A stretch of DNA of 62,578 bases, filler included, from Hausera hauseri (taxonomy: Eukaryota), in assembly GCA_046269625.1 (NCBI GenBank). It is 11 parts of 11 records of this genome, joined end to end, with 100 filler letters (N's around TTAATTAATTAA, not from the genome) between each part and the next. Parts side by side here need not be neighbours in the genome. Positions count along the whole stretch, not along the records: positions 31,260 to 36,189 come from JBJURY010388813.1; positions 36,290 to 44,210 come from JBJURY010874292.1; 9 more parts are not named here. One strand, written 5' to 3'. This document shows, in pieces, positions 16,906 to 62,049 of the stretch. The translations under genes and the position numbers were made by a program. The notes beneath the pieces are model-generated. The model saw only the letters and a program-made list of their open reading frames with translations, was not told where the DNA came from and did no database searches. How positions within the stretch are numbered: the stretch's first letter is position 1; every line of letters starts with the position of its first letter.

Positions 16906-16948
16906 TTTGTTCGGGTTCTGTATGGAAGAACATAGGGTGTGTTAGCCG

Positions 16949-20363: not shown

Positions 20364-21310
20364 CACCAAGTAAGTGGCAACAACATCACCGTCATTTTCG
20401 CATATAAAATATTCTAATGAGGGTTTTGTTACTTCTTTATGGTACTCAAATCATCGTGCAGCAACTACAATTTATGCCAAAAACACAGCTACCGGTCGTA
20501 TTGTACATTGTAACGTCATTCTTGACGTCATTAAGCATCTACCGGTTGAACTCCGACCACAGGAGTTATATTTACATGAAACTACCAATCATCAGACCTA
20601 CCGATGAATTCGGTAATACGTCCTTCACGTTGAACGGTTCACCATTTGAATGGTCAATACACTCATCGGGTTTAAATAGCGATACACAAGGTATTCTAGA
20701 ATTTATAACGTGGACTGAATCAGAATATTCAACGCCAATGTTTATCGCAAATTTGAAGCAGCAAGGACTTCCAGGTTATATGCAGTTTGTCAGTGGTCTA
20801 AAAACAGGGTCTACAACAGTTTCTTTAACATTTCGCGACGAAAACGTCAAAAGTATTGTGCATAGACCAGATTTTCTGCTTCTACTCATGGCTAATGCTG
20901 CTTTATCACTACAATGCGTATACTAGATTCCTAGCATTCACGTCCTATAAAATATACGTTCACAAGCAAGCATTATCTATAAAACCAAAACTTTCCAGTA
21001 GTCAATATTTATTCCAAGCTAACAGTAATATCACAGCCCTTGATACTCAGTGCTCAACTGTTACAGCAAAAATACGTCAAAACTGAAGTTATACTTATTA
21101 ACAAAAATATAACAGAAGAATTCCGACATACGTTTTCAGTTTCATTCGTCGTTGAAACGGGGTTCTTGTCATTTCATATTTCATTGAGAAAGAACGTTTG
21201 GGTTTTACAAAGGGGCAAAGCACATATTTATACCTTGATTGTGAAACCGTGTGATTCAAATAGTCATCAAATATACATGCCCGACAATACCTGTCTTGAA
21301 TCTACATTTC
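20364..21310 (+). pseudogene. NUP210: Nucleoporin gp210 N-terminal fragment, frameshifted and truncated by the Gypsy element
   Basis: IYAKNTATGRIVHCNVILD..ELYL, DEFGNTSFTLNGSPFEWSI, VSGLKTGS, VVETGFLSF, WVLQRG, QIYMPDN follow the Nup210 N-terminal order across several frames. Confidence 0.85.
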
Positions 21311-24300: not shown

Positions 24301-26144
24301 TGGTACACTACACTTTGTACATAAACATGTACTATATTGCTCCGAATTGACAGCACTATTCGCACACTTAAGCGGCGGCGAAAAACATCAGCCAATGTCC
24401 AGCGGACACCCGAATTGGTTGATAAGTTTGATAAGCTACGCGAAGGAATTAAGACCGTCGACATTCTTGCTTTCCCCAAGCCTGACGCGGAACTTATCCT
24501 TACTACAGACGCTTTAGCCACTGCAGTAAGTGCTGTACTCCATCAAATCCACAAAGGAGAAAATCAACCGCTAGAATTTTTCTTTTGTAAGCTAACATTC
24601 TCTGACACTAGATATTCAACGTAGGATCGTGAATTATTGGCCATCGTTCTCGCTTTAAAGCATTTCTTCCACCTGCTTGTCGCTCGCCATTTTACCATAC
24701 AGACCGACCACAAACACTTACTTAACATCATGGCTATGAAATATCCTTCCACACGCCAAAAACGACAAATATCATACTTATCGGCATTTAACTTCGAAAT
24801 TAAACACATTGACGGGGTTAACAATTTAGTTGCTATGTTTTATATAGGACGGTTAGTTCGATTAATTTTTCACCAATTTTTACGCAAGATCAACTTCAAC
24901 AGAACCAGCCACATTAGAACATGCTTAATTCTTTCAAGTCTTGCACAATTGTAGACGGCGTGGCTTTAGACACATCCAAACAACGTCATTCCTTAATAAT
25001 CCTTGCACCATAGTTGCAAAGGCAAGCATTTAATTGTATACATTCGCTACACCACTCTGGTGCTAAAACCACTTTTTGTTTACTCCACCGATAAGTAGTT
25101 TGGCCGTCAATGCGTTCCGATGTGCAGGCATGGGTTAAGGAGTGTGCGGCTTGCCAAAAATGCAAAACAACTAAGCATTTAAAGCCACCGCTAGTTCAGT
25201 TCCCCTGCACATCGCGTTTTGAATCCATGCATATCGACATCGTTGGCCCTCTTCCTCCAGACAACGGCCATCAATTTATTCTTACCATGATGGGATGTTC
25301 CTTGTGATGGTCAAAAGCCATCCCTCTGCGTAGCACAAACACCTATACTATACATGACATTTTCATTCGTACATGGATTAGCAGGTTTGGATCAACTCGT
25401 TTCATTATCACGGACCAGGGTCCACAGTTTGAATCCATCCTGTTCAAATTCCTTGTTAACCGATTGGGGATCCATCACATACATACTACGCCTTACCATC
25501 CCAAATCGAATGGCTTTTTAGAACGTTTCAGAGAACATTAAAAATATCATTAAGAATTCTTGCAGAGTCTAACACTAGTTGGACAAATCTTCTTTCGCTT
25601 GTTCTGCTTGGCTGTCGGAATACTCCGTCCACTTCTACAGGATTCTTACATACTGAAGCCTTATTCGGAGCTCCTGTACGATCATTATTCGAACTAACTG
25701 CTCTAGACGACACTCCTACAGATTAAACGATACGGACGGTGCAAAACCACTTCGTTACGGTCAGCAAAGATTCGTTATGCAGGCTACGCCACAAAGACAA
25801 AGCATATTTACCCGAAGACTTGTATTCGGCAAAATTGTATGACTAAGGAATCAAACGTCGTGCGGTTTCAAACCGCGGTATCTGGGGCCCTATAAACTGA
25901 TACAGCTGCATTCGCATAACGATATTATTTCTAAAGACGGCAAAAAACTTACAGTGCATATTACCAAGTTAAAGCCCGCCTTCCTCGTCGACGACATTTC
26001 ACCAATCCACACGTCAACCTCTTTTCTCACACTTACACTTCCTGCTAGTCCTATATCTGCTGCCACACCTGTTCCACTTCCCTTTTGCTCCTAGTTCTGC
26101 TTCATCATTTTCTACACATTCTATTTCTTTTCCTACCCCTCTTC
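21311..26144 (+). mobile_element. Decayed Ty3/Gypsy element (CsRn1-like, CHCC gag), 3' end replaced by a Penelope-like fragment
   Basis: gag 21659-22700 with two C-x2-H-x9-C-x3-C knuckles; protease FLIDTVA; RT MPFGLQNA, YIDD; RNase H TTDA; integrase HIDIVGPLP, TDQGPQFES, GPY. Confidence 0.92.
21659..22630 (+). CDS. Gypsy gag (frameshifted near the zinc knuckles)
   Basis: Homologous to 53160-54120; LEKLAELAD, coiled coil, CYYHRRF. Confidence 0.75.
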   Translation: MNSSATIDTTDKTITKAKYVKLLQKRTPTSAKNSSPSTSCAPFPHWTEFFIDNQGSSKTWLQFHQLWLQANNITNSLNKAHNLLFLLRDNIKTRIHNIIEIFELPVPYLLLFKAVLKITEPSMDTIIQRFFQDNAIGTQRPLDLLRTSLTHLHTLGVTKEHNPELLRYYFLNALPIQIRVLHTVVEDSTALEKLAELADRTHCVLYLNSLPIVSATVAANGTPNNNALIEQQLNQLCTENTALHATINNINNKLNELSLSRRWGFVADRAHSASKNWSPPPVRSNICYYHRRFNKSAKNAIKGANFIIKVYFRHCCLHLPCKV

Positions 26145-26493
26145 CTATTTATTACTAAATAGATCAATGATTTGCTTAGTAGTAAACATAACATTTAAAT
26201 TGGCTTCTTTAGGCAATAATTTTAAAATTTTTGACTTTAATTTCTTAGAACCGTCTGAGAATGGCAATTTTAAAATTGATCGCCTTTTTAAATTTATATG
26301 TTTATTGTCTTTATTGTTTTCTATGCCGAAGGTTTCTAGAATGTTTTCTATTAAACCACCTGGATCGAAGTTATGCAAATCATTTGTGGTTTGATTAGAA
26401 TTCGTCATATTGTTTTCTGTATTTGTTTTCGGTGAATAGAATTTATTCAACACTTTCCTATGGCGTTGTATATTAAATAATCCGGATAACCAT
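26145..26493 (-). mobile_element. Penelope-like element fragment (RT thumb/linker region)
   Basis: GYPDYLI...ILKLPF...LNVMFTTKQIIDLFSNK; similar to the linker upstream of the GIY-YIG at ~46060. Confidence 0.65.
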
Positions 26494-26968
26494 NNNNNNN
26501 NNNNNNNNNNNNNNNNNNNNNNNNNNNNNNNNNNNNNTTAATTAATTAANNNNNNNNNNNNNNNNNNNNNNNNNNNNNNNNNNNNNNNNNNNNCCTTTTG
26601 CCACTTGTTTCTTCACAGGCGTTTATTCAGCCATTATATACATCGACTTCTTGACTTAAATAGTTTATTTTTGTTTGATAATCTTCGAAGCAAAATTTGC
26701 ATTTGATGTATCCGGCATTTTTACTACGATTTAATTGAACTGTACAAGATTCCTCATGATATCCACAATATTTTAGATTAGATTCCGAATTGGAAAGTAA
26801 TTGTTTCTAACGTAATGTTGTTGAGGTATGTTTTACATCAGATCGATAATTGATAATGAGCATTAAAATATTGTGGTAATGAAATCGTGATAATGATACG
26901 TTTTAATCCCTTTCTGTAAAAATCCAGAAATTTTACGGAATTAAGTTAGCTTCTGTATTTTGTTTTTT

Positions 26969-29900
26969 TGCAGGACTATGCAAAACCGATGAATTCAGTG
27001 GGTATTTTTATGTGCTCGACATGCTTTAGTTGGGCTTATATTGTCATTCATTACTTTCAACTTCAATCCAGGCTTTTCAATGACGATTATGAAACAAACG
27101 GTCAAAATTAAAAGATAAAATAATTGGTAGCCTGATAAACGACCAAATAAGAATATTGATTTTATTTGACACTGATATGGACTGTTCGGCTGCCAAACAA
27201 ACACAGGCCAAAAGGTAAAAAGGTAGGACGAAAACCGTGCCGGCTTAGCTGCACTGAACGGTGACCCGACTGCCAAAAATGGCGGGCCATATCTTAGACT
27301 GTGGCACTACATAATCTCACCCGTGTGGCAAAAAAGAAACTGTAAAGTAAAACAGAAAGAGGCAAAACGCAAAAATATGTTTAGTGCCTATTGGGTTTTG
27401 GTGTGTATAAGGCGTTGTATTCCATCTGCGGATTTTTCCGTATTATAGGTACTAAATGTCACTTTGCATGCCTTATTTGATTTGTGCTTGGCTGTTGAAC
27501 GATATTTTGTAGTAGACGTTTTATAAGGTTTTCTGATTCAATGCGCTGTGTTGCTTGTGGTAAAGACGTTAAAGATGGTGAGAGAATAAATCAAGCAAGA
27601 AAGGCGAAGAAACTGAAGGCAGTGGAGGTGATAAAAGAGAGGGAAAAGAGGCGGGCGGAGAAAACGGAATAAGCAACGTAGGCACTGTAAGCGTTGCGGA
27701 AGATGAGGATAGTTTAGCGTGAGAGAAAAGTGGTTGCTGCAATGGAGCGAAATCGTGGAGAAAGTTTGAGGAAGGAATGGAAGGAGTGAGAGTTGAGTTA
27801 GGGTTGGGGGTAGAATCGGCATCCGGTTTGTCGTCAACTAAGGAAGCGGGTTTAAGATTCGAAATGTAGACGTTGTAGGGTTTGTCTTGGCATAAGATGG
27901 TAGCTGTATGAGATGAGAAGTGAAGAAGTTTGTATGGGCCAACATACTGAGATCAAAAACCCGAAGGTGATTGATCCTTCAGCCACACAAACTTGGCTGA
28001 GTATAAATTCTTCGGAATGTACGATTTGTTATTGTTAAATATGCAGCAGAACAAGTCTGAGCTGACCTCAACAAAGTGAGTCTGGGCCGCGCGAATATTT
28101 TCGTCTGTCAGATTGTCGTCGAGGTTGGAAAGTTCGAACAGATCCCATATTGGAGTCCCAAAAAGTGCCTCAGCTGGAGCACACCCCGTGGTAGTGGAAG
28201 GAGTGTTGCGCCAATCGAGTAGAACAAATAGTAGGATAAACGTCAAATTGCCATGATTGTCTGCCAAGATTTTTAAAGAAATTTTCATTGTTCGATGGAA
28301 CCTTTCAAGAAGGCCATTTGATTATGGATAATACGGCGTTGTATGGAAATGTGATATTTCCAAGCGTTTAACAAGTGATTTAAAGAGTTCCGATTTGAAC
28401 TGCGGATTTTGGTCCGTTATTATGTGCCGTGGGGATCAAAAGCGACTGATCCAGATTTTAATAAAAGCATCTGCTACTGAATCAGTGTTTGTTGAACGGA
28501 GAGGAACGGCTTCAGGCAAGCAAAAATTACGATCCATTATAGTGAGAATATGTTGACAGCCGTTGTCAGAAGGTAAGGGTCCAACGAGATGAAGATGGAC
28601 GGTACAGGGGAAGTGGTAAAGCGGTAGTTTAAGATGTTTGTTATCTTTATATTTTTTTACAGGCTACGCATTTCTTAACCCAGCCCTGAACATCTGTGCG
28701 CATTGATGGCCAAACTACATGACATTGGAACAAACGAAACGTGGCTTTCGAGCCTGGATGATGAAGTAAAAGCGTGTGAAGGAAAGCTGGTTTCTGCAAA
28801 GAAGGAGCAAGAATGATTTTTTATTACCGGGATTAGATGTGTCATATACAATGTCATCAATGATTTCGAAGTATTTGAAAGAGCTACAAATATCAGCAGA
28901 CGGCTGATTGAGATTTAAAATTTCGGCAGAAAATATTTGTTCAACCGTAATTGAGTTGATCGATCGCCAGAGGAAATTCGCGACCAAATTATCAGTACCT
29001 GAAATAAACTTTATGACAAAACTAAATGTAGATAGGTACAATATTTGTCGTTCCTGCCTTAGTGATGTCTGTTTTAATGACATGAGGTGCATCAGAGAGA
29101 GGAGGAGATGTTTGAAATGTTTTACTGCCAGAGCTATGGCTAGTAGCTCACGATCAAATGTTAAATATCGGCTTTCTGGTTGTGTCAGTTTTCGAGAGCA
29201 AAATTCTAAATATTCATCTTGTGTAGTATTGCACCAGTAGCTGTGGTAGGGGCATCGATTGTGAGTATCAGCTGTTCGTCGGGTTTTTGATAGGCCAGTA
29301 TTTCGACGGTTTTTAGGTCTTCACGTAAGCGATAGAGTTTGGTGACTAAATCAGGTGTCCACTGCATTAATTGTCTTTTATTTCCAGATGAGAGGTGTGA
29401 GAAAGGTGCTGTAAGCTTAAAGCAATGCGATACGTATTTATGGACGAAATGTAGTGTGCCAAGAAAACTCCTCATATCTGTAGTGGTCGTTGGTAGTGTT
29501 ACATTTTTCAATTGCTGTAGTCGATCAGATTGTGGAGAGTGGCCGTTAGGTGTAATGCTGTGGCCTAAGAAATTAACACGTTTCTGAAAGAAGTTGCACT
29601 TGGAGAAGTTAACTTCTAAGTTGCTATGATGTAGTCTGTGAAAAATAATTCGGAGAAGTTCATGGCGTTGTTTGACGGAGTTGGAGGCAACTAATATGTC
29701 ATCGATGTACGAATGAGCAAAATCAAGGCCTGAGAGAACGGTGTCGATATGGCGTTGAAAGGTTTGGGATGCGTTACGTAAACCTAATGGCATAAAGATG
29801 TATTCGTAGAGGCCAAATGGAGTGATGACAGCAGTCTTTGGAATGTCATCGGGTGCAACGAAAATTTGGTGGTAGGCTTTGTGCAGATCTATTGTGGAAT

Positions 29901-30759
29901 AGGTATTGGTGCTGTTAAGACTGTGCAGGATGTCTTTTATGACCGGTAATGGGTAAGCATCCATGATGATTAGATAGTTTATTTGACGGTAGTCGTCACA
30001 TGGTCGAAAAGTACCGTCTTTTTGCTATTACGTGTAATGGTGAAGCCCATGGTGATTTTGACCTCCGAATGATACCAGATTTTTCGAGTTCCTTAAACTC
30101 TAATTCCACGGCTTTTCGTCTACGAGGAGATAAGGGTCTCACATTCTGTCTGATAGGTCTTTGGTGTTTGGTGACAATGTGGTGATAAGTTGTTGATGGC
30201 GGCTTAAACTAGAGTTTTTTTTGAGTATGCGAGAACTAAAAGAAATGATGTAAGATTCGAGATTGAAATCTAGTGATAAAAATAATTGAGGCATATTATC
30301 AGAGGAGGCGGTGACTGTGATTGGCGAAGAACGAACGACATCGCCGCCATGAACATTCGGTTTAACCGATTGTTTTAAAATCAATTTCGATATTTAAGAT
30401 GTAATTGAGAAAACAGATAAACTACTAGATGTATCGTTATCAACCGACGAGCAATTTGCCAAATTTACATGTGAGTTCGCAGACGAAGTGCCTGTTGAGC
30501 TGTATTGTAGACAATTGTTAACGTTCACGAGGGAGTCTCTACGTAGCAAACAGCCATACTTGCAGTCAACTAGCAGGTCGTGTGCGGCCAAAAAATATGA
30601 GCCTATTATTGGCGATTTAATATTGGCCACGTGGAATTTCTAGACAAACTTGCCTGGTAAATTTTAAAATGTAAAAATCAGTTCCGTGGTACTTGAGATT
30701 CGCAAAAGTTAACCACTAGCAGCGAAAATCGGGAGAGACGAAACTGCAATGGATGTAGG
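26969..30759 (-). mobile_element. Decayed Gypsy element of the same family as 21311-26144 (PR-RT-RH-INT, PPT, 3' LTR at ~26969-27311)
   Basis: DAYPLP, IDLHKAYHQ, YIDD, TIDA, integrase core; on the - strand the PPT-like GGGTGAGA is followed by TGTAGTGCC starting at 27311. The left boundary of the LTR is tentative. Confidence 0.9.
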
Positions 30760-31070
30760 TGTGGTGCCCATGGTGGCCGGTGGTCTTTGGCCTATTTGGT
30801 CGGGCGCGGCCGGGCGTCCGTTGCCGCGGCATCGGGTCCATAGTCGAGCCCGATCTTCGCATCTAAATCGACTGTCAAGAAAAACACATGTACTATAAAT
30901 GATCTTACTCAACAATGTCCTTCGATGAGTGATTATAAAATACCAATTCGAACCCATAACGTTAGTTCTGTATAGCGTACAATTAGTTCAAGTAAATGTC
31001 AGAGTCCTGAGAGTAAAAGTCCAATTTCGAATAAAAACGAATTAGATTGGATTAATATACCACCACTGCA
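30760..31070 (+). repeat. Solo-LTR-like repeat interrupting the Gypsy protease
   Basis: Starts TGTGGTGCCC exactly where protease homology ends; TATAAA and AATAAA inside; ends CACCACTGCA; GC-rich core shared with 35018-35308 and 59211-59265. Confidence 0.6.
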
Positions 31071-32089
31071 GTTGTTTTGTTCTAATTCTGGTAAGTCCAA
31101 TAATCAGACAAGTCGAGAAGTACAAACTACTGAATTAGACTTCTATAAGCACAATAGTTNNNNNNNNNNNNNNNNNNNNNNNNNNNNNNNNNNNNNNNNN
31201 NNNTTAATTAATTAANNNNNNNNNNNNNNNNNNNNNNNNNNNNNNNNNNNNNNNNNNNNAGAAATAAGTTAGTGTATATCAATTTATTATATAATTGTAT
31301 TTAATGTTTTCAATTTAAAGTTAACATTTACTTTAAATTGTTTAAATTTAGAAACGTTAACAATATCCCATGTACTGCATCTCTCGCGTACATGAGCAGG
31401 CAGAACAGTACCATCAACAGATGGCGAAATATTACAGCGTTAGAATGGACACATATTTGTGTCCAATGTGTAATATTTCAGCCCAATGTTCGTACCCCGA
31501 TTTTTATGAGATGCACAAGCATCATGTCGGACCATTTACACGGTCGAAGAAGATGATGCTAGTGCACTGACCCATGTGCCTACGGTACTGTATAGTACAG
31601 TGCACAACCTTGATGATTGCCATAGTTCAATGGAGCAATAATATGGCGCCACAACGGTGCACTGTAAATGAATTTTCGTTTGTTCCGGTTGTACAATAGG
31701 GGATGATGTCAACTATGAACAATTTTACTATGAGCACCAGGACCATTTAAACCAGTTTCATCAGTGGTCGAAAAAATAAATGTTAATGGAATCAACAAAA
31801 ATCAGCAACAATATCCCTTCAACAACACCAACAACAACTAGTAGGTAACGTAAGGCATCACAAGTTTGGACAAATACATTAGAACCAGTACCGATCTGAA
31901 AGACGAAGAATAAGAAGAGCAATGATTTGAACAAATCGTACGTGGACATAAAAGCGAACATGTTTCTGGCGAAAACAACAACGCAATTGAGACCTGCTCC
32001 GCAAAATGTGCGCAACCGGTTGGAATCAGAAGTGGAGAAATTCCAACATCACCACCATCACTGCAAAGTGCAATATTATGCACTTGCAG

Positions 32090-35017
32090 AATTTAAAAAC
32101 GTTTAAGGTGACAGGAAACAATGGTATCTGTCACAGCGAGCTGTACCATACGCCGAAGATTTTATTGCCAATATAGGCGAAAAGCTCCAGGAGAAAATTG
32201 CCAACTACACGGAAAAGGGCAGTGGATGGCGAATTATACAAATTGTCGCCCTCGGCTTTATTATAAGAAGGTCGAGTGACATAATATATTTGTCCGGCCG
32301 ATCATTTATACCAACATCTGTAGCTCTGAAGCAGTCTGGCGATAGTGAATGTAAAAATACTAACGGCGGTATTGAAATATGACGAAGTGGACACACATAG
32401 CTCATCTCGTCCAAAACACTATCAGAAATATTTTTCCGAATTGGATTTCGATGAAAGCTGGATGCCGATGAAACTGAAATCCATTCCGGCTTTTGAACAG
32501 CGTATTCCGACACTGCAATCAACGTGTTCCGGTACAACATCATCGTAGAAATACCGGCGGATAAAGAAATTTAGAAAGATCCTCATCTGAATATAATCTA
32601 TCGTACTCGGAACCCAAATGGCCGCTCAGCAAATTTGCTGCTACTGGAACAAAAAGAAAAGTACCTTTACGTTGCAGTGACAAATCTAGACAGACTACTG
32701 AACATGCAGCAAGACCATTTTCTTCAAAAACGGATACAGTGTAAATGGTGTCCTGTATGGCATCATGGATTCAGATCGGAAAAACATGGGAGAAACACGT
32801 CACTCTGTGCATAGAAGGTTCTTCAGGAACCACAATGTAAATCATGCCCGTCAAACAGAAACTCAGGTTCACTGATTGGTTAAAAACAGACAGTTCGGCA
32901 TAGGTATTATATGCCGATATCGAAGCTATGTTACCACGGCATAACATACATGACCAAAAACATGTTCCAATCGCCATCAAAATGTTGGTTGTTCAAATAA
33001 GAGCTGCAGATCAATATCAATTTTATGTTTTCCACGGATGGACTTGTGTACGCGATTTTTTGCAGCTGTTGCAAACCATAGTGGAAACTGAAATTGCACA
33101 CTGGTACAGTAGAAATAGCAATAAACTCTTGATGTGGACACATGAAGATGACCGCCTGATGATTGCAGTCACAGATAAATGTTATCCGTGCCACAAAATA
33201 TTACCGTTTGACGCATTGGAATGGCTCGTACCGGATCACGATCATTTTACTGGTCGATATCTCGGAGCAGCTTGCAATTCATGCAATTTGGCAAGGTGTG
33301 TGCGGCCATTTCTGCCGATGGTATTTCATAACTTCATGGGTTATGATTGTCACCATATTTTGAAATGGGCAATAAGTAAATTTTCGCAATGGGAACTATC
33401 CGTAATTCTGACTACAATGGAGAAATACATGTTAGTGTCTGCTCGTATAAACCGGTTCCACGTACGCTTCTTTGAATCATTGCAGTTTCTCAATGAATCA
33501 GTGGCAAAGCAGGTAAATGCCTTATGAGATATACCGATAGCACTGATGCAGTTCCCTGCAAATATTGGGCGCAGCAAAGACATATTTCAATATGAATTTG
33601 CAACATCGTATGAGCGACTCCGGAGAGCAGAGGAATTACCGCCGCGATGGACAGGTACTAGAATGAATATAGGATGAATACCAGAAAGCACAGTGGTGTT
33701 GGAAAGAACTCGGCTGTAGAAATATATTGGATTACATGCTGCGGTATCTTAAACGGTATGTGCGCTTATTAGCTGATGTATTCCAGGCGTTTCGAAAATG
33801 AGTTTGGCGTCAGCTCTAATGTCACTGGATCGAGACATTGAGCTGCTGCAAGACCCGGAAATGTACCGGCTGTTTGATGCTGGTATTCGCAGCGGCATGG
33901 CTTTTGTCAACAAGCATCAGGTCCTTACTACCGATATCACATCACTGCTGTATATTGATATTAATAACCTGTATGGCTGGGCGCTTTCGCATCCCTTACC
34001 GTACGGTTCATTCGAATGAGTTGTCGACAGACAAAATCTGGATGACATAATGGTCAACCTGCCAAGAGCACACATGGCAGGCTCAGTCGGATACCTGACG
34101 GAGGTTTTGGACGATTTACCGGTAGGGCCATTTAACCAATGTCCGCCAGGCTCAAAAGTGAAGAAACTGCTAATGACGCATTAACTGAAGCTGAACTACG
34201 TGGTCCATTGGCGTTTTCTACAGTTCTGCATGCAGCTCGGTGTGCGCGTAACACAGCTGCATCGTACAATCCCATTTTCTCAGCTTCTATATTCAAGGCC
34301 TACGTAAATGGAAATTCGGAGAAACGTCCCAGCTTGTACAAAGTTCGAAAATGATTACTACAAGCTAAAAAACAATTTCCTGTGCGAAAAAACAGCGGAG
34401 AATCTGAAAAAGTGGTTTAATGTACGCCTATACAATAGCTAAAAGTGATTGGTCACATACACAAGTAAGGTTCAGTTTCGGCGGTCAATCCAAACTGCCG
34501 ATGGATTGGTTGCGGTTCTGTTAAACCTTCTCCGGCCAAGTTACATAAGACAAGTGGTACTGACCTGAGCAAGTTGCGGATGTATGAGCTACAGTATCGC
34601 GATTTAGCACGTTACCGGCAAATGTTTGACGGCTGTGATATTAGTATAACTGCCGATGACACAGACAGTTTTTTCCTGCGGCTGAAAAATGTCAATCGCA
34701 AACAGCTACTGCAGTAAATATTGTCAGATGGATCACGGGACACGTCCAACTATCCACCGGATCATCCGTTGTACAGCAGCGCGATTACCAACAAAATCGG
34801 CTGCTTCAAGAATGAAAGTGAAGTTAGTGTCCGGTATTGGGAATGTATATTCCTACGCCTAAAGTGCTAGTCTTCTGACGGACTGTGGACCGAAAATACG
34901 GGCAAAGGGAGTCTAGCCGAGACACACGGAAATCGACAACGGTGATTATCGCCGTATATATAAAAAAGTAGCGGCAGAAGGAAAACAAACAGTGGCTGTT
35001 GTATCTCAAATGATCGT
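32090..35017 (+). pseudogene. Polinton/Maverick-type protein-primed DNA polymerase B relic with embedded HNH (endonuclease VII-like) module
   Basis: EKGSGW; LYADIE; DHDHFTGRYLGAACNSCNL; FHNFMGYD; YIDINNLYG (motif A); YYKLKNN (motif B); DTDSFF (motif C); DTSNYPPDHPLY..NKIGCFKNE; many stops and frameshifts. Confidence 0.88.
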
Positions 35018-35815: not shown

Positions 35816-36290
35816 CATGTTCTCTTGTTCTGTTTAATGAAATGTTAAATGCATCATCCTCGTTGCTCATTGGACATAGCCCATAGGTGTCGTTCCGATT
35901 TCCAAGCCAACTGCTAAAAACTCAGTCACCTAGTAACCGTGAAAAGTGTTGCCTATTTACCACTAGGATTTTGCGTGGTCATCGGTTTTTCAGTCAAATA
36001 CCAATGCCAAAGTGATGCGCATCTTCTTAATCATAAAGGATTATCTTCTCATTCCTACCAATCCTATGATGAAGGATGTGGTCTTTTGTGTATGTGCCAA
36101 TCAGGTTTTGATAAGACGTATTGGCATCGCCAACTATTTTATGTTTCCTCTGTTTTAAACAAAAAAATGAATATGGCCTTCCCCCCGGANNNNNNNNNNN
36201 NNNNNNNNNNNNNNNNNNNNNNNNNNNNNNNNNTTAATTAATTAANNNNNNNNNNNNNNNNNNNNNNNNNNNNNNNNNNNNNNNNNNNNT

Positions 36291-36509
36291 TTGGAAATAT
36301 TGTACAAGATTTGGGGAAGATTTATAATTTTCGGATAAGCCGCATCTGGATTTCTAACTATTTCCTTTCTAGTCCAGTTAATTAAAGCCGTAATCCAAGC
36401 TATTATAAGCGGATATGGGATCTTCACATTGACAGGATTCTCTTGTAAAATTTTGACTCCGATCATTACACCCTTTGGGAAGACACTTAAGGCCCTAGAT
36501 TTTGTATAA
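36291..36509 (+). pseudogene. C-terminal membrane region of a chuvirus-like glycoprotein
   Basis: Frame from 36291: LEILYKIWGRFIIFG*AASGFLTISFLVQLIKAVIQAIISGYGIFTLTGFSCKILTPIITPFGKTL, matching the W..F..FG...SG......IK..I..II.GY.L....G.S..LL pattern; not in the ORF track. Confidence 0.65.
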
Positions 36510-36989
36510 ACGCAAAAACAAGAAAATAGTAACTTGGAGAGACGATTCAGACGATGACGACCCTAAGGAGGAGAAGTAAGTTCCAGAGGTAAGATGCACA
36601 AGATGTATTCAAAGGTTAACGCACCATTACCTATAATCCCACCAACCACACCAATATTTGAAGATTGTGATCGTAAATCGATAGTATCATGTAACTCCGA
36701 AATATACCAAAAGCCTATTAATTATGAAGATCCTTACGAAAGAACAAAACATTATGGAGTACTAAGGAAATGAATGTTATTAATCAAGAACTTACAAAAA
36801 AACAATCAAGGGATAATATATTCGAAAAGGGTACCTCGTAACATAAAATCCAAGTCAACTATTTGGGAGAACCCGAAACTGTGTTCCATCTCAGGTATGC
36901 TGCCGCAAAAACCACTCATTGACAATTACATTAATGAAATAGCGAGCAATAATTTGTACCCGAACGTAGAATTAAGGCAAGTAAAGGTG

Positions 36990-39900
36990 AATATCATGTT
37001 ATCGCCAAAAATAACAATAAACGGACACGGAGTCTCTACTATAAAGCCGTCGAAGATAGCGTCAGATTGTGTCGGAACAGTAGTAGTAGGGAGACCTTTT
37101 GCTAAAACACACATTGAAGATTGGGACGTATATGCCTTAATCGACATAGGATCAGAAAAATCATTTATAAAATATGAATCTATACAAACCACATTGCGTG
37201 ACCAGTTATGCCTACCCGCATCATCGAACCCAGATAGTGTAGGAACATTCGTACATATATCGAAGCCAAAATTCAAATGGACTCCTACCATTTATATGAT
37301 TGGTGAAGCAATTCAACACGAATTTGCCATAATTGACCAGTTAACAGACGATGTAGTACAGGATTGCGACGTATTAAAGAAGATACCAGGTCTAGCAATC
37401 GATGTGCATAACGGAAAACTAATTGAGCTCAAAACATTAAAAGGGACAAAGGTAATAAAGGAGAGGAAATCGGGCGAAGTATGGATTTCGGTAGATAAAG
37501 ACATTCCGCCCAGAACCGAAATGGTAATTTTCGCACAAATTCGTCAGGACGAAGATCTGCCAGTATACTTCGAGGCTCAAGGGAATATAGATCCAAACTT
37601 TATGTTTAGCAATATTCTATGTAGAGTAGTGACGGGACGAATACCTATTAGATTAATGAACAATGACCAACGATAGTGAGATTGCACAATAACACTACGT
37701 TAGATCACACTTGCAGAGTATCTGCAATAACAATCGAAGAAAAATCATACAAATGCGCTGAGTTTCCACCTCACGTCGAAGCCAAATTTTCTTTTGAGGC
37801 ATATTGCAAGTTCTATGAATTATTATTCAAATACAGTTAATAATTGCACAAAATGAGGAAGACATAGGTAGAGCAAAGGCCCTGAGATTAACAATCCCGT
37901 TAAGAAAAAAACATGGCTCGAATGACGAAATTGATCTAGAACAGAAAATGCCTAAGTGGTACCCACCTCGTCATTCATTGAGACCAGAGATAACTAAAGA
38001 GGTAGAGCGAATGTTAAAGCCCATATAATTTGATCAAGATATCGATCATGGTACTGACCAATACTTATGGTTAAAAAGAAAGGAACTACGAAACACATAT
38101 TTTGTATCGATTACAGGGCATTAAATACGCTTATGATAAAAGACTCGTTCCCATTACCATCGGTAAAAGAAGCATTAGACAGATTATCAGGAGCGAAATG
38201 GTTCACCACTCTCGACTTACAATCGGGATACTGGCAAGTGGAAATCAAGAAAGAAGACCGATTTAAGGCAGCATTCAAAACACACGATGATGTATACGAA
38301 TTTAATATTATGCCCTTTGGAATTACCACAGGACAACCTATTTTTACAATAATGATGAACAAGATGTTTATGGGACTCGATCATGCATTCGCGTACTTAG
38401 ATGACGTGATGATAGCGTCAAAAACAGAGAAAGAACACTTAAAGTACATCGAGGATACACTCATGCGACTGTAACAAGCAGTATTGAAATTAAGTCCAAA
38501 TAAATGTAAATGGGCACAAAATACAGTGTCATACCTCGGACACAAAGTCGGAGAAGGAGAATCAAAACCTTATAAATCCCTGTTAAATAAAATATCTGAT
38601 TGTATCGAACCCCAGAACCAAAAAGAGTTAAAACACTGGCTATGTGGGTATTATGCTACTTACGTGCCGGACAACTCAAAAATTAATGCACCACTATATC
38701 GCCTACTCAAAAAAAGGACTAAATGGAGATGACCGGAAATAGAGCCAAAAGCATTTGATAAAATGAAGAAAATTTTGACAAGCAAACAAATTCTGAGATA
38801 CCCTGATGTAGCTTACCATTCATCATTAAAACAGACGTAAGTAAGGAAGGTATAGGATATGAACTAGCTCAAAAACGAGAAGACGAAGAACTAGAACACT
38901 CAATAGCTTATGGGGACGTTCGCTGAAGAAAGCAGAAAAATTATTCACTTACCGAACTAGAAACGTTAGCCGTAAAGAAAGAACTACGAAACTTTAATGT
39001 CTATGTCTATGGACAAAATATTATAATATTGACCGACTACAAAGCAATTACGACATTGAAAGGAGGAGCTAATAACCCAACATACAGATTAAACCGTTGG
39101 ATCGAGAAAATCTCACAATATAACATCGAATTCCAATACAAACCAGGCAACAAACAAGTCGACGCCGACGCAATATCAAGGTTAATGACGAAAACAAGTG
39201 GGATTACTACAGTGAAGAAAACGCAACTTGAACAATTAATTGAACGTCAAGGAACCTTAACCTTGGATAAAACGATTAGGATCACTGCAGAGCAAGCTAA
39301 AGATAAGGTTATCCAGCAGATTGTCGACTTCGCACAGAACGATAAAATGCCCCAACGAAGACAACTGAAGAAGCATCTACAAAAACACGGACATAAATAT
39401 CGCGCATCGAACCAAGATAACATCCTATATTACGAACAAAAAGGTAGAAGACTAATAGTTATTCCAAAAGGATTACGCGTCGACGTACTTACGGCTGAAC
39501 ACGATTCATATTTAGCTGTACATACGTCTTGGAAAAAGACTTTGCAAATGATATTAAATAAATACTATTGGCCAAGCATTTATATTGATGTAAAAAATTG
39601 GATAAGTGCTTACGAAGTTTTTGCGACAACGCTAAAGAAAACGAAAGGCTACGCAGCAGAATTAAAGCCCATAAACGTACCAAACAGGTCCATGCAAGCT
39701 ATGTCTATTGAATATAGTTGGATCTTTGCCTAAAACTTATCGAAATAACATGTATATTCTGCCATGCGTAGATCGGTAAACGCATTTTGTCGAATTGATG
39801 GCACTATTATATCAAAAGACGGAAACTTTAGACGACGCAGTGGTAAGAAAAATCATTTGCAGATACGGACCACCAGAACAAGTCTTAATGGATAGAGGAA

Positions 39901-40574
39901 GGAATTTCACAAGCGAATTATTTAAAAAGATTACCAAAATATTCGAAATCGAACGCTTAATTACTACCGCGTACTACCCACAATGTAATGGAATGGTCGA
40001 ACGAATGAACGCAATAGTCATTCGCATACTATCAACAGTAGTAGCCAAGGATCAAAAGGATTGAGGCGAATTCTTAGAAGGGCCACACTTCGCCATTAAT
40101 ACGACCCCACATCCAGCAACCAGATTTACACCGTTCTTTATGATGTATGGACGAGAAGCAATATTACCTACAGATCTAGGTATGACACCATACGTAAAGT
40201 ACCTCGAGGATCTAGAGCAAAACTTTGCCGAAGTCTTATAGACAAAATCGCAAAAAGTGTTGGGAAGTCGCAAAAACACTGTCACTCGAATACCAGGAAC
40301 AATTTAAAAAACAATATGATAAAAAGACTAAGTCCCACGATTTGGGAAAAGGAAACTGGGTTTATATACATTACCCAGTCGCAAAGAAAGGTACATCCTT
40401 GAAATTAACTCGTACCGGAAGAGGACCATATGAAATCGTCCTCACAATGCCAACCACGGTCTATATTAAGAAAACGGTAAAGAGGAAGTTGTATCAATCC
40501 AAAGAGTAGTTAAGACAGATATAAGACCAGACAAACGCTACAATTTAAGACAGCGAGAAGCCAAGACATCGTAA
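36990..40574 (+). pseudogene. Gypsy pol: aspartic protease, RT, RNase H, integrase
   Basis: ALIDIGSEKSFI; CIDYRALN, LDLQSGYWQV, MPFGI, YLDDV; KTDVSKEGIG, TDYKA, DADAISR; HDSYLAVH, MDRGRNF, YYPQCNGMVER, GPY, RYNLR. Confidence 0.93.
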
Positions 40575-42000
40575 ATTGTCACCAAACCGGTATCTTACGC
40601 ACAGATAATAGTACCCTTATCGCTGATTGCTGTTCTAACACCCAAGTCTAACGTCCAATGGTGGGTCGACGAAACTTCGTTGAGCAATATATATGGAATT
40701 CGGAAAACAGGATTAAAATCTTTGCCACCAAAGGATTGAACTTCCGAACGCAAAGCAGAACAAAAGGATAAAAAATTCTCACGATAGATAAAATTAGATT
40801 ATTCTTCGCCAGAAATCCCATATGTCGGGTTTAGGATACCAGGACCATAAAAAGGCACATTCAAATAATATTCCACGACCTATTAAGCCGATTTGAGTCT
40901 GATTGTAACTTCGAACCAGAAGACGATCCAATTTGCTTTAACGTAAAATATGGACACTCTTACGCTCTCAGTTATCGTTTATATCTGTTGAACTGCAATG
41001 AAATACGCGCCGAAATAAAATTGAATTTACATCTAGTTATACCACGAACTTATGGAGACTACCTTAATATAGAGTTGGAAGAGATGCTCCAGTCTATCGA
41101 CCCATTAAAACGGATTCTAGAAGAAAATATAGCTAGTATAACGGAAAACCCAAAGGATTGCTGTATCCAAATAAACACAAAGGGGCGGCTAATTATAGGA
41201 CAAGTAATCACGGTTAAATTCATAAAAGAGGACGAAGCAGCTCATAGACTACAATATTGTCAGATTGACACCGAAAGACCGAATAATAAATATAGAATTC
41301 GACTAGATTTGTATGATGTTCGAACAAGCCAACCAAGGGTCTTCTTAGGAAGTTACCAATTGGGAAATCTAATTCAAGGAGCTCTGCCTCAAATAACGAC
41401 CAGTAGAATTACGACTACAAAATTGAATGTAACTATTTCATTTTTCATCAAATTCCTCCAGACAAGTGGATTACCTCAGAGGAATATAGAAATCATTCCT
41501 ATAAAATATTGGATACAACAACATGAGATAACGTTCATTGTGGAAGAAGCACTTAGTTAGGACGTAGAAATTAGCTGCCGAACATTACACAATAACCAGA
41601 AAGTCACAGTGACCAGAGGTAGCTATCGAATCAAATGTACCGGTTTGAAACCAAAAGCAGACTACATAATACAAATGAGCGCAGAGAACAAACAAAGTAG
41701 AACGTTTACGGTACGGACCCTAAACGAGCTTGCCTTAACGAAACCACTAATTAGTGAGAAAACGGCAGACAAAATTACGGCTACCGTTAAAACGAAAAAT
41801 TTAGCTCGACAGACAACTTTGTCATTAATATCGATTATTGGAACGTCAACATTTGCTCTTATAATTTTGATTGCGTTTTGTCGACTTATTACCAAAAATT
41901 TCTATAATAAGCGTCATAAAATCACTGAGAGTGAATTAAGGGTGATGGTACCACAGAAGGAAATCAATGATGTAGTAACCAAACAATTGCAGGTTGGGTT
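40575..42000 (+). pseudogene. Type I membrane protein relic: signal-like segment, ectodomain with fibronectin-III-like module, transmembrane helix
   Basis: IIVPLSLIAVL right after the integrase; CTGLKPKADYIIQMSAENK fits the FN3 L.P...Y...V.A.N signature; TM LSLISIIGTSTFALIILIAFC followed by basic residues. Confidence 0.6.
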
Positions 42001-42590
42001 ATTCCACCATCTAACAAAGAATTGGTTCAAATTTAGAACAATATTTTGTTATTGGATTGACCCTTATTTTTTATTTTTCAGAATGGTAAGTGTGGATAGC
42101 TGAATTAGCATCGACAAATATTTATGGGAATAGGCCACAGTATTTATCCCGAATTCAAAGTCTATTTACAGGCGTATAAACGACGCATTACAAACCAAGG
42201 TCTATATCGAAATCTTAAGAACCAGTGAAATACCGAATGATCTTAAAGGCATTACAGAGGAGAGTCGTGAAGTCTATCTTTATGCAATGCGTGAAAATAA
42301 CCAAGCAAAAGTGTATTCTTTAAAAGAATTAATCCGGAATCGACCCTGTAAAATACAAGATATATACATTCACTTAGCCGATGGAGAATTGTATTACAGA
42401 ATAACAGAACAACCTTGGAACTCTAGTGAAGAGCATTAATACCAATTTAGTACATTTAGAATAAATTGAAGGGGCTTAGAAATATCGACTATGGTTTTGA
42501 ATTCCAAGTAGCGGTCCTTCCTCTTAAGCTTATGTTCGAAGTGACCTACAGAGAAAACTGCAACTTAGGCTTGCTAGTTCTACAGTTTGA

Positions 42591-43158
42591 ACAAACTCCA
42601 ACAGAGGTAGAAAGGACGAACATTGTCAGTCGTATAGGTTATTCCAAGACGGTCGCAACATAAGAATTATAGCCATAAACAGTGGCAGAGGAGATGATGG
42701 ATATGGAACACCCATCGAAATATCTATTAGAGAAAGAGATGGGACTGAAATATATTCTACCGTCATAAACCCCCGGAAACATGTCCAAGAGTCGTACGCA
42801 GAGGTAACTGGTTTAAGAAGAGATCAGCTCATAAGAGGAAAGGATATCCAGATAATTCGTTTAGAGTTGGACCATTGTCTTTATGGCTGTATGTTAGCAG
42901 GTTATAATGTACAACGAGATTGAGCTATTAGGAATATCCGATGCAAATATTGCCGGACTTAGGGAAATAGCCACTCACCCAATAGTCCAAGAACGAATGG
43001 AGAAAGCCGTACAAGAAAGAAATCGACCAACCGCGACAGAAGCTTTCTTTAAACTAATGGTCGAAGCCATGAGCAATGATTCACATAGAATTCCAAGACT
43101 CCTAACGGGCAGTCAACGTTCCAAATATCTGCAAGAAATTTACAAGTCATTAAAATGA
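42591..43158 (+). pseudogene. DEDDh-family 3'-5' exonuclease relic (REX4/ISG20-like)
   Basis: Frame 42591-42923: IRIIAINSG...EISIRERDGTEIYSTVINPRKHVQESYAEVTGLRRDQLIRG...LYGCMLAGYNVQRD, then a frameshift to ELLGI..LREIA; fits the vSiv...G..lyd..v.P...v......vsGi....L...l.g..lvGh....D pattern; the ExoI acidic residues appear mutated. Confidence 0.7.
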
Positions 43159-44079
43159 GAACATGAATGGGCCCCGAGAAACCCCACACATAATTTACGT
43201 AGTTCCCTGGAACCCGAAAACAGACGTCAAATACAGAAAGAATATAAAACCATATTCCCCAATCAGAATCGTTCAACCGACAGACGACCATAGCCTTACA
43301 ATTGCTGTGCAACAAAAGACAGAAAACAAGATAAAATTACCAGAAATCAAAAAGGAAGACAAAATACCCACTAGAACGCCGATATTCCTAGGACAGCGAA
43401 AAAAAGAATCGAAGCCAGAAACAATAGTGAAGCGGCAAAAATTGGAAGAAGAGACTCAGCCAAAGAAAGCCCCATCTATCTATAACTATTTATTAAAAAA
43501 GGAAAAGAAGAAAATCAAAAGGACAAAAACCAACCAGTGGTACCAATCACCTCTCAAAAGGCTAAATTCGTAAAGAAAATTGGTAAATCTATGATAACCG
43601 AAATCAATGTTCTATTGGAAAAGAATACCGAAGAAAATGTCCACCGCAAAACGACTCGGAATTATCCAAGAATTCTGATAACTACCGAATACTGTAGCAA
43701 AGAAATGATTAAAGAAGCCATGTTTTTTATCAAAATTGCACCAGCCAGAGAAGTATTCGAGAATATATATGTGTGGGAAAACCCTAAGTTAGGGTAGTAT
43801 CGCACTTCAGTTTTCCGCTCAAAGAAGACAGGAAAATTAATAGTTCAAGTAGATAAGCAGATCCGGATACTATTGAAGAAGCAATACCAAAAATATCAAA
43901 TAGAAGTAAAAGTTTCCGATTTAGATCCAGATCTTATGGCGGACTGGACATTAATACAAGTAAATTGTGACCCCCGGAAAAGTTCCATTAACCCCAAACA
44001 AAAGGTAATAGATGGATACCTGTACCAAGACGGAGATGGTCTTGTGTTTGAGCCGATTGAATTAACAATTTAGGTAGAT

Positions 44080-44210
44080 TTGGATAGAGACTGTTGGGAC
44101 AAAGAAGATAATGAATGCCCTGTGTGCGATGCCAATATAAAGAAAGGTTATGTGGTATTAGATAATAACGTTTTCCGACACAAATACTGCCGAGATTGTC
44201 TGGAGAAGTG
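44080..44210 (+). CDS. RING-like zinc finger, truncated by the gap
   Basis: CPVC-x16-HKYCRDC; the Cys normally found two residues before the His is absent. Confidence 0.5.
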
Positions 44211-44310: not shown

Positions 44311-45590
44311 TATGATGCATCTTATTGCTGTTTCTCTATTGTGCGATACATTTTCTTGGAACTTGTGTATTATGCCACACGTTTTATTGGTACGTGTGTG
44401 TTATGTGATAGATTTTATTGGTACTTGTGTATTATGTGATACGTCTTATTTATACATGTGTATTATGTGATAAATCTTATTGCTTCTTATGTATTGTGCA
44501 ATACAATTTATTGGTACTTGTGAATTATGTATAACATCTTATTGAACTTGTGTTTTATGTGATACATCTTATTGCTACTTGTGTATTGTGCGATCCATTT
44601 TATTGGAACTTGTGTATTATAGGATACATCTTATAGGTACTTTTGTATTATGTGAAACATCTTATTGCCACTTGTGTATTGTGCGATAAATTTTATTGGT
44701 TCGTGTTTGTTTTGCGACACTTTTTACTGGTACTTGTGTTTTGTGTGATACGGCTTATAGGTACTTGTGTTTTATGTGATTCATCTTATTGGTACTTGTT
44801 TATTGTATGATACATCTTATTAGTGCTTTTGTGTTATGTTATACATATTATTGCTACTTGAGTATTGTGCGATACATTTTATTGGTACTTGTTTTCATGC
44901 GATACATCTTATAGGTGCTTGTGTACTATGTGTACATCTCACTGGTACTTGTGTATTATATGATACATGTTATTAGTACTTACATCTTATTGGTACATCT
45001 TATTAGTACATCTTATTGGTACTTTTGTATTATGCTATACATTTCCTTGGAACTTGTGTGTTATGCGATGCATTTTATTGGTTGGTGTATTATGTGATGC
45101 AGCTTATTGCTACTTGTGCATTGTGCAATACATTTTCTTGGAACTTGTGTATTATGCGATACATCTTATTGGTAAGTGTGTGTTATGTGGTACATCTTAC
45201 CAGTACTTGTGTAATATGCGATACATCTTATAGGTACCTGTGTTTTATGTGATTCTTCCCACTGGTGCTTGTGTATTATATGATACATGTTATTAATACT
45301 TGTGTATTGTCATACGTTTTATTGGTACTTGTGTATTATGCTATACATTTTCTTGGAACTTGTGTATTATGCGATACATCGTATTGGTACGTGTGTGTTA
45401 TGTGATACATCTTATTGCCACTTGTGTATTGTGCGATACATTTTATTGGTACGTGTTTGTTTTGCGATACGTCTTATTGGTACTTGTGTTTTATGTGATT
45501 CATCTTATTGGTACTTGTGTATTATGTGATACATCTTATTGGTATTTGTGTACTATGTGATACATCTTATTGGTACTTGTGTATTATGTG
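44311..45590 (+). repeat. 31-bp minisatellite (GGTACTTGTGTATTATGTGATACATCTTATT), about 40 diverged units
   Basis: Head-to-tail tandem units with no unique spacers. Confidence 0.95.
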
Positions 45591-52778: not shown

Positions 52779-55700
52779 TGTATGCCCGCTGTTTGCCCCA
52801 TGGCCGTGGGTCGCGCGGCGCGTACTGTGGGGTTACCGCGTCGCGCCCCTAGATCCAGCCATCGCATTTTTTCCATTTTCATTTTTAAATACAACACACA
52901 TTCACACACATACCACAAATCATGATACCTTAGGAAAAGTGCTATATGCTTCAATCTTACACGCCACCGACATGTCCGAGTTTGCCTTGTTTTTCAATGG
53001 CTTCATCATCCGTCGACATGATCGGCTGTGTAGCTTTCTTTTGCATCCATTTTCATCCATTTGTGTCACGCTTCAGTCTAAACTGTATAATGGTTCTGAT
53101 CCCAACGCTGATGAGATAAAAAGTCACCTAACATAACCTTCGTGTCGCCAACTCCTTCCTCCTTTTTACACTTTTAGTGCGTCGATTTTTTCCTTGATAG
53201 TCAGAATTCCAGCAAAACATGCCTAGATTTCCACGAATAGATGCTATCCTCACACAATGTCACCGATTCCTTCCAGAAAGCCAACAGTTTACTGATTCAT
53301 CTGCCACCCAACATAAAATCTTTCATCACTAATCTATCTGATATTTTCAATCACTCCGACCCCTACAAATCTCTATTGGACGCCGTAACTACATCAACAG
53401 AGCCTTCGCTAAACTCCATAATTCAAAAATACTTCAACGAAAATGCTCTTGGCCAGAAAAAACCTTCAGAATTTCTTCAAACCACAATCTCACAACTAAA
53501 TTCACTAGGCGTGAACCAACAAAATAACACTGATCTTCTCAGACGTTATTTCTTATAATCTTTTCCAATCAAAATCCGCGCACTCGTCACTGTAGTGGAG
53601 GATTCTATGTCGTTAGACAAACTGGCGCAACTTGCAGACAAAAGTTATGAAAATTTTCACAACAATGATACACATACAACGATTTCAGCTTTACAAGCAA
53701 CACAATCACCAACAATAGTTGCACATCTATAGTCAAAAAACTCATCAAACATCGCAAACAACATAGTTAATGAAATACAAAATCTTCAAGCCAAAAATGC
53801 GGACTTACATCAGGCTATTTCAGCTATATCTAGCAAACTCGACGCTTTATCCTTTCCGCGTCGTGATCAGTTTAGCGCAAATCGAAGTACGCAATAGTCT
53901 GTAAACTTCAGGTGTGCCCAGTCACCTTCGCGATGGATAGTGTGCTATTATCACACAAAATTCAATCGAAATGTCAAAAAATGCCGTATAGGCTGTAAAT
54001 TCTACATGCAGAATTTCCAATCACGCGATGTAGTCTGCATCGATCACAATAAGTTCAAAGACAATGCAAAACGCTGCTTATATGGGTGTACGTTTTACAC
54101 CCAGAACACTCCGACTTCTTCATCTAGTCAAAAAAGAAGAAACCGCCAGAAACTACGACAAATTCTGGCAAAGGCCATCTTTCATCACTTAACAGCTGTA
54201 CTAATGCTGTTTTTCTATTAGACGGTGCACTCACATCTTCTCCACACCATACTAAATTCTTGATTGATTCGGGTGCAACCGTCTCATTATTACCTTCATC
54301 TTTCCATTCTTTAAAAATTCTTCCAACCTTTGCTAGGCTATTTACTACCAATGGGCAAGCCTTACGCATTTCTGGTACTGCAGAACTCTCCTTCACTTTA
54401 GCACATTTCTCTGAACTTTTTCAATAGAAGTTTATTGTTGCTGACATCAAAACTCCCATCTTAAGCATTGATTTTCTATTGCATTACAATTTACTTGTCG
54501 ACTGCGGACAGCATCGTGTGATCAAAAATACCATTAATCATACAAAATCACAAAATAATGCACCATTTGTCGCGCAATTGGCTGTAACGTCACAGTCTAT
54601 AATAAAGAAATCTTTTGTTAAACTAGATAAATTGAATGTTAATAACTCCGATTGTGACGTTTCCATTCATACTGTAACAACAAAAACAATTGCCAACACC
54701 GACACAACCTCTCACCTCACCTACCCATTAATGCAACTGAATAGAGCTCTTCGTGACTACATCACAACTTTTTGTTCTAAAGCATTGAAGAAAGACCCAA
54801 ATTTCAAGCCTGCTTCTACGACGTAACATCACATCGTCACTGATCACCAAAGACCAACTAAACAGAAGGTTAGGCTACTTTCTCCAAGCAGACGCAAAGC
54901 TGTGGAATCGGAGTTAAATGAATTAGAAAAGGCAGGAATTATAAAAAAATCAAAGTCACCTTGGGCCTCATATCTGCACATAGTGCCCAAGAAGGACGGT
55001 ACTTTCAGGGCCTGTGCCAAAAACCATTGAACACCATTACGATAATGGACGCATATCCATTACCGCTCGTCAATGATATCCTATACAGACTTAATGGCAA
55101 CACCATATTTTCATCCATCGATCTTCATAAAGCCTACCATCAAATTCCTCTCTCACCTGCTGACATACCGAAGCAGCCTCTTTGAGTATGTCTTCATGCC
55201 GTTTGGTTTGCGTAATGCCTCTCAGACATTTCAAAGTCACATAGACACAATTCGTTCTGGTCTAAACTTTGCATTTCCTTACATAGATGACATTCTCATA
55301 GCCTCGTCATCCCCTAAACAATATTTTGAGCACTTACGCATAATCTTTCAACGCCTTTACCAAAATAATTTAGAAGTAAATTTCGCCAAATACTCTTTTT
55401 TCCAACACAAGATCCATTTCCTTGCTTATGTCATCACCAAATTTTGCCACTCTTCTTAGCAATACCGCATAACTCAACTTAAGGACATTAAATTGCCTCA
55501 AAAAACTGAAATGCGCTCTTTTCTTGGCACAGTCCACTTTATTAACAAACATGTGCAGCAGTGCTCTGAATTAATCTCACCGTTTGCGTTTTTATCGTCT
55601 GAAAAGAAGAAACAATTATTTCACTGGACTCCTGAACTTGTCAACCAGTTTGATCATTTACGTGAAGGTTTAAAAACTATCGAGATTCTAGCTTATCTCA

Positions 55701-62045: not shown

Positions 62046-62049
62046 ATAA

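Follow-up and report, generated by a model that had tools for sequence, protein, structure and literature searches.

Positions 36,290 to 44,210 of the DNA analysed here, a window of 62,578 nucleotides (nt) from Hausera hauseri (GCA_046269625.1), correspond exactly to one contig of 7,921 nt (JBJURY010874292.1) that lies between N-linkers and is cut at both ends. The window consists of 11 eukaryote-like, N-linked contigs of 4–9 kb, and contigs that adjoin one another in it are not genomic context and may differ in organism. All modules of the contig are on the + strand, beginning with the end of a glycoprotein B (gB)-type envelope glycoprotein (env), continuing with a pol gene, and followed by 3.6 kb of decayed coding DNA, here called the 3′ block. 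The contig is best explained as an internal part of one dead copy of a Ty3/Gypsy element that has many copies and a gB/chuvirus-type env before pol. The element type suggests an invertebrate animal as its likely host. The copy is considered dead because each of its genes is interrupted by stops or frame changes. An initial annotation had described one contig with all modules on the + strand, similarly decayed and packed closely around a Gypsy pol, which the N-linker borders, Pfam matches and reading frames confirm. Its description of the contig as A-rich throughout agrees with the AT skew, which is above zero in 30 of 31 bins (250 nt each; range 0.0–0.55). As it also stated, neither a polypurine tract (PPT) nor a long terminal repeat (LTR) was found in the 3.6 kb behind the integrase, where six purine runs of 11 nt or more occur, the first at 42,729.

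The first ~220 nt of the contig (36,290–36,506, +) encode the C-terminal end, with the membrane anchor, of a class III fusion glycoprotein of the chuvirus/gB type. The contig start cuts the gene, so that only this end is present, as ~70 codons that include a hydrophobic segment (hydropathy 2.06) and one stop at 36,336. The Pfam family PF24664 (Monjiviricetes_fusion) matches positions 36,339–36,503 with an E-value (E) of 5.6e-5, at profile positions 551–594 of 653 and below the curated cut-off, and this match supports the earlier assignment of the glycoprotein as a fusogen. An Atlas search with the env end gave no usable match. Between the env end and the protease is a linker of ~210 codons (36,507–37,133, +) in the frame of both, with stops at 36,507, 36,555, 36,564 and 36,771. 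The Pfam scan gave no Gag match between the env anchor and the protease, and ~210 codons leave little room for one. Therefore, the order of the element is env-pol, with gag, if any, upstream.

The pol gene follows the Ty3/Gypsy (Metaviridae) order of protease, reverse transcriptase (RT), RNase H, and integrase. The aspartic protease and the spacer that separates it from the RT (37,134–37,676, +) begin with the protease motif at 37,134 and are within an open stretch of 300 codons. This region matches P0001, a retroviral-type protease with a Pfam RVP domain (32% over 126 amino acids (aa), E 6e-16), which was the sole match among 1.84 billion representatives. The spacer is conserved, being shared with P0001, and no Pfam dUTPase match was found in it. 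The RT (38,058–38,732, +; RVT_1, E 1.9e-24) has the motif YLDD and is interrupted by stops, and RNase H (38,733–39,250, +; RT_RNaseH, E 3.7e-12, and RT_RNaseH_2) is in pieces over two frames. The integrase (39,460–40,574, +) has a zinc-binding domain, core and GPY module in pieces over three frames (Integrase_H2C2, E 1.1e-12; rve, 2.5e-5; MLVIN_C, 0.0027), and the stop at 40,572–40,574 is likely the end of pol. The closest solved RT is that of Ty3 (E 1.4e-30), followed by others at 8.6e-19 and then at 1.8e-8 or weaker, which rules out a BEL/Pao identity. Identity with Kuafuortervirus is ruled out by the YLDD motif, as that group has IADD, VADD or LADD in place of YXDD (PMC11673190). Searches against longer proteins found none among 1,164 candidates for the protease region and none among 1,727 for RNase H-integrase at E 1e-10. 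Because even pol gave almost no match, the protein libraries are evidently poor in such elements, and blank homologue searches therefore say little about novelty.

The 3′ block, 3,636 nt behind pol, has a strong coding signal on one strand. Stop-free stretches of at least 85 codons cover 84% of it on the + strand and 8% on the − strand, whereas 300 shuffles averaged 3% and never exceeded 25%. It retains open frames of 241, 180, 139, 110, 103, and 101 codons, which are intron-free and have A-rich third positions as in the rest of the element, and pol is interrupted to a similar degree. Directly behind the likely pol stop is a predicted type I membrane protein (40,575–42,103, +) with a disturbed 5′ end. 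It shows a short hydrophobic stretch (40,605–40,637), two open stretches in the same frame (241 and 180 codons) on either side of a single stop (41,558), one clear transmembrane (TM) helix (41,813–41,893), and then a predicted cytoplasmic tail. A fibronectin type III (FN3)-like segment is near 41,570–41,720. A homologue search with this protein found none among 3,190 candidates. Two stop-free stretches of 101 and 67 codons follow (42,134–42,663, +) with no credible family match, and the PHROGs and NCBIfam matches to the family-less stretches of the 3′ block are likewise not credible.

The next gene (42,591–43,158, +), in two frames, resembles a 3′–5′ exonuclease of the DEDDh family (RNase T/ISG20/REX4-like) by Atlas, PDB and NCBIfam DnaQ-family matches. 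In the Atlas search with its first part, the top match was RNase_T (0.91), with 154 shared features, and 10 of 10 named matches were in one clan. Models of ISG20L2, ISG20, PolC and the DnaQ family weakly match residues in common with this part (E 0.05–1.6), the NCBIfam DnaQ-family match having E 0.046–0.066, and the Pfam scan gave no exonuclease match. A single-sequence fold of the exonuclease piece is of low confidence (predicted local distance difference test (pLDDT) 52.5) and had no match at E 0.001 in the PDB and viral libraries. FixL matches to the piece are in a different, N-terminal part and were attributed to chance. A low-complexity open stretch rich in lysine (18%) and proline (10%) follows (43,154–43,573, +). 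The last frame (43,486–44,210, +), ~240 codons with stops at 43,795 and 44,071, ends in a RING-like zinc finger (44,116–44,199) that the end of the contig truncates. Of the eight zinc-ligand positions of such a finger, five of the first six are present, and the last pair would be past the contig end. The piece before the finger folds with low confidence from its single sequence (pLDDT 44.1). Where the initial annotation named an RNA exonuclease and an E3 ligase, resemblance at the family level stands, whereas activity is not readable from the decayed copy.

To gauge copy number, contigs of one public sequencing run from one study (X1) were placed on 36,290–44,210 at 80% likeness. The run contains 47% of the sampled words of our contig, and 13,560 of its contigs could be placed, of which 439 are alike at 99% or more, 1,601 at 95–99%, 5,015 at 90–95%, and 6,505 under 90%. 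Thus, 11,520 of the 13,560 records are less than 95% alike, most being 80–95% alike. All 30 bins are covered, with summed depths of 182 to 34,267, while the two exact-match records listed have depths of 5.5 and 12.6. The env end is itself high-copy, with 30 records that differ at the two sites listed. From this cover, depth, and divergence, neither the env end nor any of the cargo genes is a single-copy host gene; all are diverged repeats. Detail on individual records covers 8 of 13,634 pieces, 15 of 71 joints, and the six best-supported of 1,616 loose ends. Among the pieces listed, diverged records with 61–76 differences are found at 41,286–41,632, 42,517–42,963, and 43,087–43,489, and cross the membrane-protein stop, the run-up to the exonuclease, and the exonuclease end to 43,489. 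Among the joints listed are deletions that link the integrase to the membrane-protein gene (40,174–41,648 and 40,551–41,251) and the membrane-protein gene to the region before the exonuclease (42,049–42,507). Of the 40 difference sites listed, 34 are in listed frames, and 27 of these 34 are at codon positions 1–2; the sites carry no weight here, and those in the 3′ block (6 of 9 at positions 1–2) are uninformative.

These data suggest, with good though not full confidence, that the env end, pol, and the 3′ block belong to one element. For the fuller reading, that this one element carried once-working accessory genes, namely those for a membrane protein with an FN3-like segment, an exonuclease of the DEDDh family, and a ubiquitin ligase of RING type, we estimate a probability of roughly 65%. 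The initial annotation had also proposed one large element, which is supported, short of proof, by the multi-copy, diverged modules, the shared strand and base bias, and the lack of internal termini; its weaker side is linkage in other copies, for which the evidence consists of overlaps between short records and of a small number of deletion joints. Codon usage of the pooled cargo correlates with that of pol at 0.70, compared with 0.23–0.64 for seven other open reading frames (ORFs) of the window, and the cargo modules are absent from the ten remaining contigs. The three predicted 3′ genes are probably real cargo, known in a single organism from one copy, decayed and truncated, and from short-read fragments.

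Several points weigh against a single element with working cargo. The FN3, exonuclease, and RING labels each come from sub-threshold or model-feature matches. The FN3-like segment has weak, sub-threshold Pfam matches (fn3, E 0.044; Pur_ac_phosph_N, E 0.013), and the Pfam and PDB matches of the RING-like finger, mostly to RING proteins, are also weak and below threshold (E 0.001–5). In the present copy, the first acidic motif of the exonuclease is non-acidic and the third motif is non-canonical, and the third RING ligand is not intact. The functions of these genes are all assigned by analogy. The env, protease, and RT are in one frame, but four stops separate env from the protease, and an in-frame env-protease fusion is putative. 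No LTR, primer-binding site (PBS), PPT, target-site duplication, or gag was found on the contig, both ends of which are cut. Its self-comparison gave no repeat better than E 0.18 and cannot reveal an LTR whose partner falls outside the contig; the contig also has no poly-A run of nine or more and no tRNA gene. In run X1, which is possibly the source sample of the contig, the records are short and no single one spans pol to the RING finger; among the diverged records listed, none bridges env and protease, and the RING frame is entered by at most 3 nt. Joints at such likeness, or with a side under 30 letters, may stem from repeats, and joint 40,551–41,251 has one side of 27 letters. Taken singly, the cargo modules correlate with the codon usage of pol at 0.46–0.59, and an unrelated A-rich Gypsy element of the window does so at 0.58–0.64. 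No relatives with the cargo were found outside the source organism in protein, viral-contig, or metagenome searches. Scans of viral contigs gave no locus with any query (RNase H-integrase, RT, exonuclease, env end, or an alignment of RTs), and the metagenome scan gave two short generic RT loci (38–40%) with no cargo match within the stored loci.

The alternative that survives best, which we nevertheless consider unlikely, is that the 3′ block is a second repeated element, either a mobile element or an endogenous fragment of a large DNA virus, beside or inside an ordinary env-before-pol Gypsy element. It would explain why no record spans the whole contig and why codon usage per module does not single out the pol of this contig, and the combination of exonuclease, RING ligase, and FN3 surface protein is also a gene set of large DNA viruses. 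Compared with pol, most of the 3′ block also has far lower summed depth, a measure that cannot rank parts. Yet the block is on the same strand as pol with no gap behind the integrase, and there are no termini and no PPT or LTR at the junction. The share of run X1 records that continue into unlike DNA is 0.01, the six best-supported of the 1,616 loose ends are all within pol and none is at a module border, and deletion joints tie the integrase to the membrane-protein gene in other copies. Less probable again is a single element whose 3′ genes never functioned and are passengers, fragments of host or viral origin amplified along with it. The catalytic and zinc-ligand positions that are not intact in the present copy would fit such passengers, but long intron-free open frames persist with the A-rich third positions of the element, copies 82–83% alike align over the 3′ genes (with few or no gaps in two of the three listed), and pol is similarly broken. 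It is very improbable that the glycoprotein end at the 5′ side lies outside the element of this pol, either as an endogenous viral element of its own, derived from a chuvirus, or as env of another element upstream: chuvirus glycoprotein fragments are often found beside fragmentary Gypsy copies without capture (PMC10084718), and the contig holds just ~70 codons of the glycoprotein, but these share strand and frame with the protease and RT, no LTR, PBS, or gag intervenes, the env end is itself high-copy, and env-before-pol elements have been described (PMC13524379).

If the contig does represent one element with working cargo, a live copy would have replicated by the usual route of protease, RT, and RNase H together with integrase, with gag and both LTRs located past the present contig ends. 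Because env, protease, and RT are in one frame, env is likely part of a polyprotein, and it may have been made within a gag-env-pol polyprotein and released by the protease of the element, as described for Burro (see below). As a class III fusogen, env could have mediated the passage of particles between cells. The 3′ genes would have been read from separate RNAs, spliced or subgenomic, and would have acted on the host. In such a scheme, the membrane protein could be a surface protein used for attachment or as a decoy, the exonuclease could shorten RNA of the element or degrade RNA that sets off silencing, and the RING protein might ubiquitinate host proteins of defence or apoptosis.

The env-before-pol backbone is a further example of a described arrangement. 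Elements of GAG-ENV-POL order with an HSV/gB-type ENV (HSV, herpes simplex virus), termed ancient errantiviruses, have been reported from Nematoda, Bryozoa, and Platyhelminthes (Chary & Hayashi, eLife 2026, PMC13524379). They share with the present element a Ty3/Gypsy pol, a gB/chuvirus-type env directly before pol, and a multi-copy state. The initial annotation, which held that env is normally single and placed after pol, had overlooked these elements of nematodes, bryozoans, and flatworms (PMC13524379). In contrast to the present element with its likely 3′ block, they are presented as three-ORF elements, and the words ‘fibronectin’, ‘exonuclease’, ‘RING’, and ‘accessory’ are absent from the main text (PMC13524379). 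In a table of the same paper, entries for LTR and PBS are missing from 8 of 9 rows for flatworms and from 4 of 10 for bryozoans, with a search window of 3 kb (PMC13524379), and these missing LTR entries may leave room for long unannotated cargo in the 3′ flank. The LTR-less flatworm env-before-pol rows of its Supplementary file 1 include families of 45 and 215 copies.

The giant planarian Gypsy elements Burro and GYPSM1 also share several traits with the present element, including a mononegavirus-like env between gag and protease, an extra region, dUTPase-like in Burro, between protease and RT, cargo that comprises RING and other host-control domains, and thousands of copies (PMC6431247). The Burro env is in frame with the protease, whereas in our contig the shared frame is broken by four stops. 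Burro cargo (BIR, BCL2, MATH, ankyrin, SUMO-like, Smc, and AIR1) is inside or upstream of the polyprotein, unlike the cargo of the present element, which is behind the integrase in separate frames; an FN3/TM protein and a DEDDh nuclease are not among the cargo listed for Burro (PMC6431247). Burro elements exceed 25 kb, and any counterpart of their cargo in the present element would be located before the contig start. As a precedent for host-control cargo, the RING-BIR (B-IAP) region of Burro1 is reported to protect stem cells from apoptosis (PMC13465017). In the LTR retrotransposons Juno and Vesta of bdelloid rotifers, a gene for a 3′–5′ exonuclease of the DEDD superfamily is behind pol, as in the present element (PMC5408684). 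That rotifer gene (ORF3) is RNase D-like (DEDDy), single, and in place of env, whereas here the matches point to RNase T, DnaQ, and ISG20 and not to the DEDDy subtype, and the gene is accompanied by env and two more genes. The rotifer ORF3s are described as separate, spliced units (PMC5408684). Anakin elements have the same glycoprotein family, with a BEL/Pao pol rather than the Ty3/Gypsy pol found here (PMC7642597; PMC10084718).

Each trait of the element thus has a precedent singly (PMC13524379; PMC6431247; PMC5408684; PMC13465017). The earlier claim that no described lineage has this combination is too strong for the env-before-pol backbone (PMC13524379; PMC6431247) and holds for the 3′ block within the literature searched: full-text searches, with few subscription journals and without RepBase, gave no description of a block that joins an FN3/TM protein, a DEDDh exonuclease, and a RING finger, and the figure supplements of PMC13524379 may show 3′ ORFs. 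We tentatively suggest a wider reading, in which the contig would be a fossil copy of an undescribed lineage of large enveloped reverse-transcribing viruses of invertebrates. Such viruses would have had a two-protein surface (the class III fusogen and an FN3 attachment protein), an RNA exonuclease directed against silencing, and a RING ligase, and would be a Metaviridae counterpart of the complex retroviruses; LTR-less env-before-pol elements of flatworms and bryozoans may be members with unannotated 3′ genes. This reading is doubtful. An element family that kept a fusogen along with another surface protein, a nuclease, and a ubiquitin ligase would bear on whether env-bearing Gypsy elements outside Drosophila are true infectious viruses and on how they escape small-RNA silencing. 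It would supply specific genes for work on entry and counter-defence, and it would imply that an accessory block at the 3′ end is lacking from the three-ORF maps published for env-before-pol elements. Such cargo is also open to mis-annotation as host ISG20/REX4-like, RING, or FN3 genes.

Other contigs of the window hold further repeats and genes. Four decayed copies of one other Gypsy clade (20,039–31,159, 52,900–58,021, and 61,900–62,578) are ~70% alike in DNA over short arms, and their RT is 28–34% identical to that of 36,290–44,210. Another A-rich Gypsy element (15,523–19,938, −) has an RNase H-integrase whose C-terminal extension is very long, charged, and in part coiled-coil, with an open stretch of 600 codons. 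At 4,582–7,252 (+), an SGNH-hydrolase-like ORF of 297 aa (Pfam SGNH, E 6.2e-6) is followed by a deubiquitinase-like ORF with a herpes-tegument-type domain (Herpes_teg_N, E 1.5e-5) and 45-nt tandem repeats; we take this region to resemble the start of a Helitron-type element, and a long interspersed nuclear element (LINE) RT is beside it on the − strand (1,826–3,490). A decayed, Polinton/Maverick-like region at 31,260–34,750 (+) has an endonuclease VII domain (Pfam, E 8.7e-6) and pieces that are DNA-polymerase-B-like by their motifs. An uninterrupted WD40 ORF of 619 codons, presumably DCAF8-like, is at 9,189–11,045 (+) and is followed by a 17-nt tandem array. The next contig in the window after the element contains a 31-nt satellite in 41 copies (44,313–45,590).

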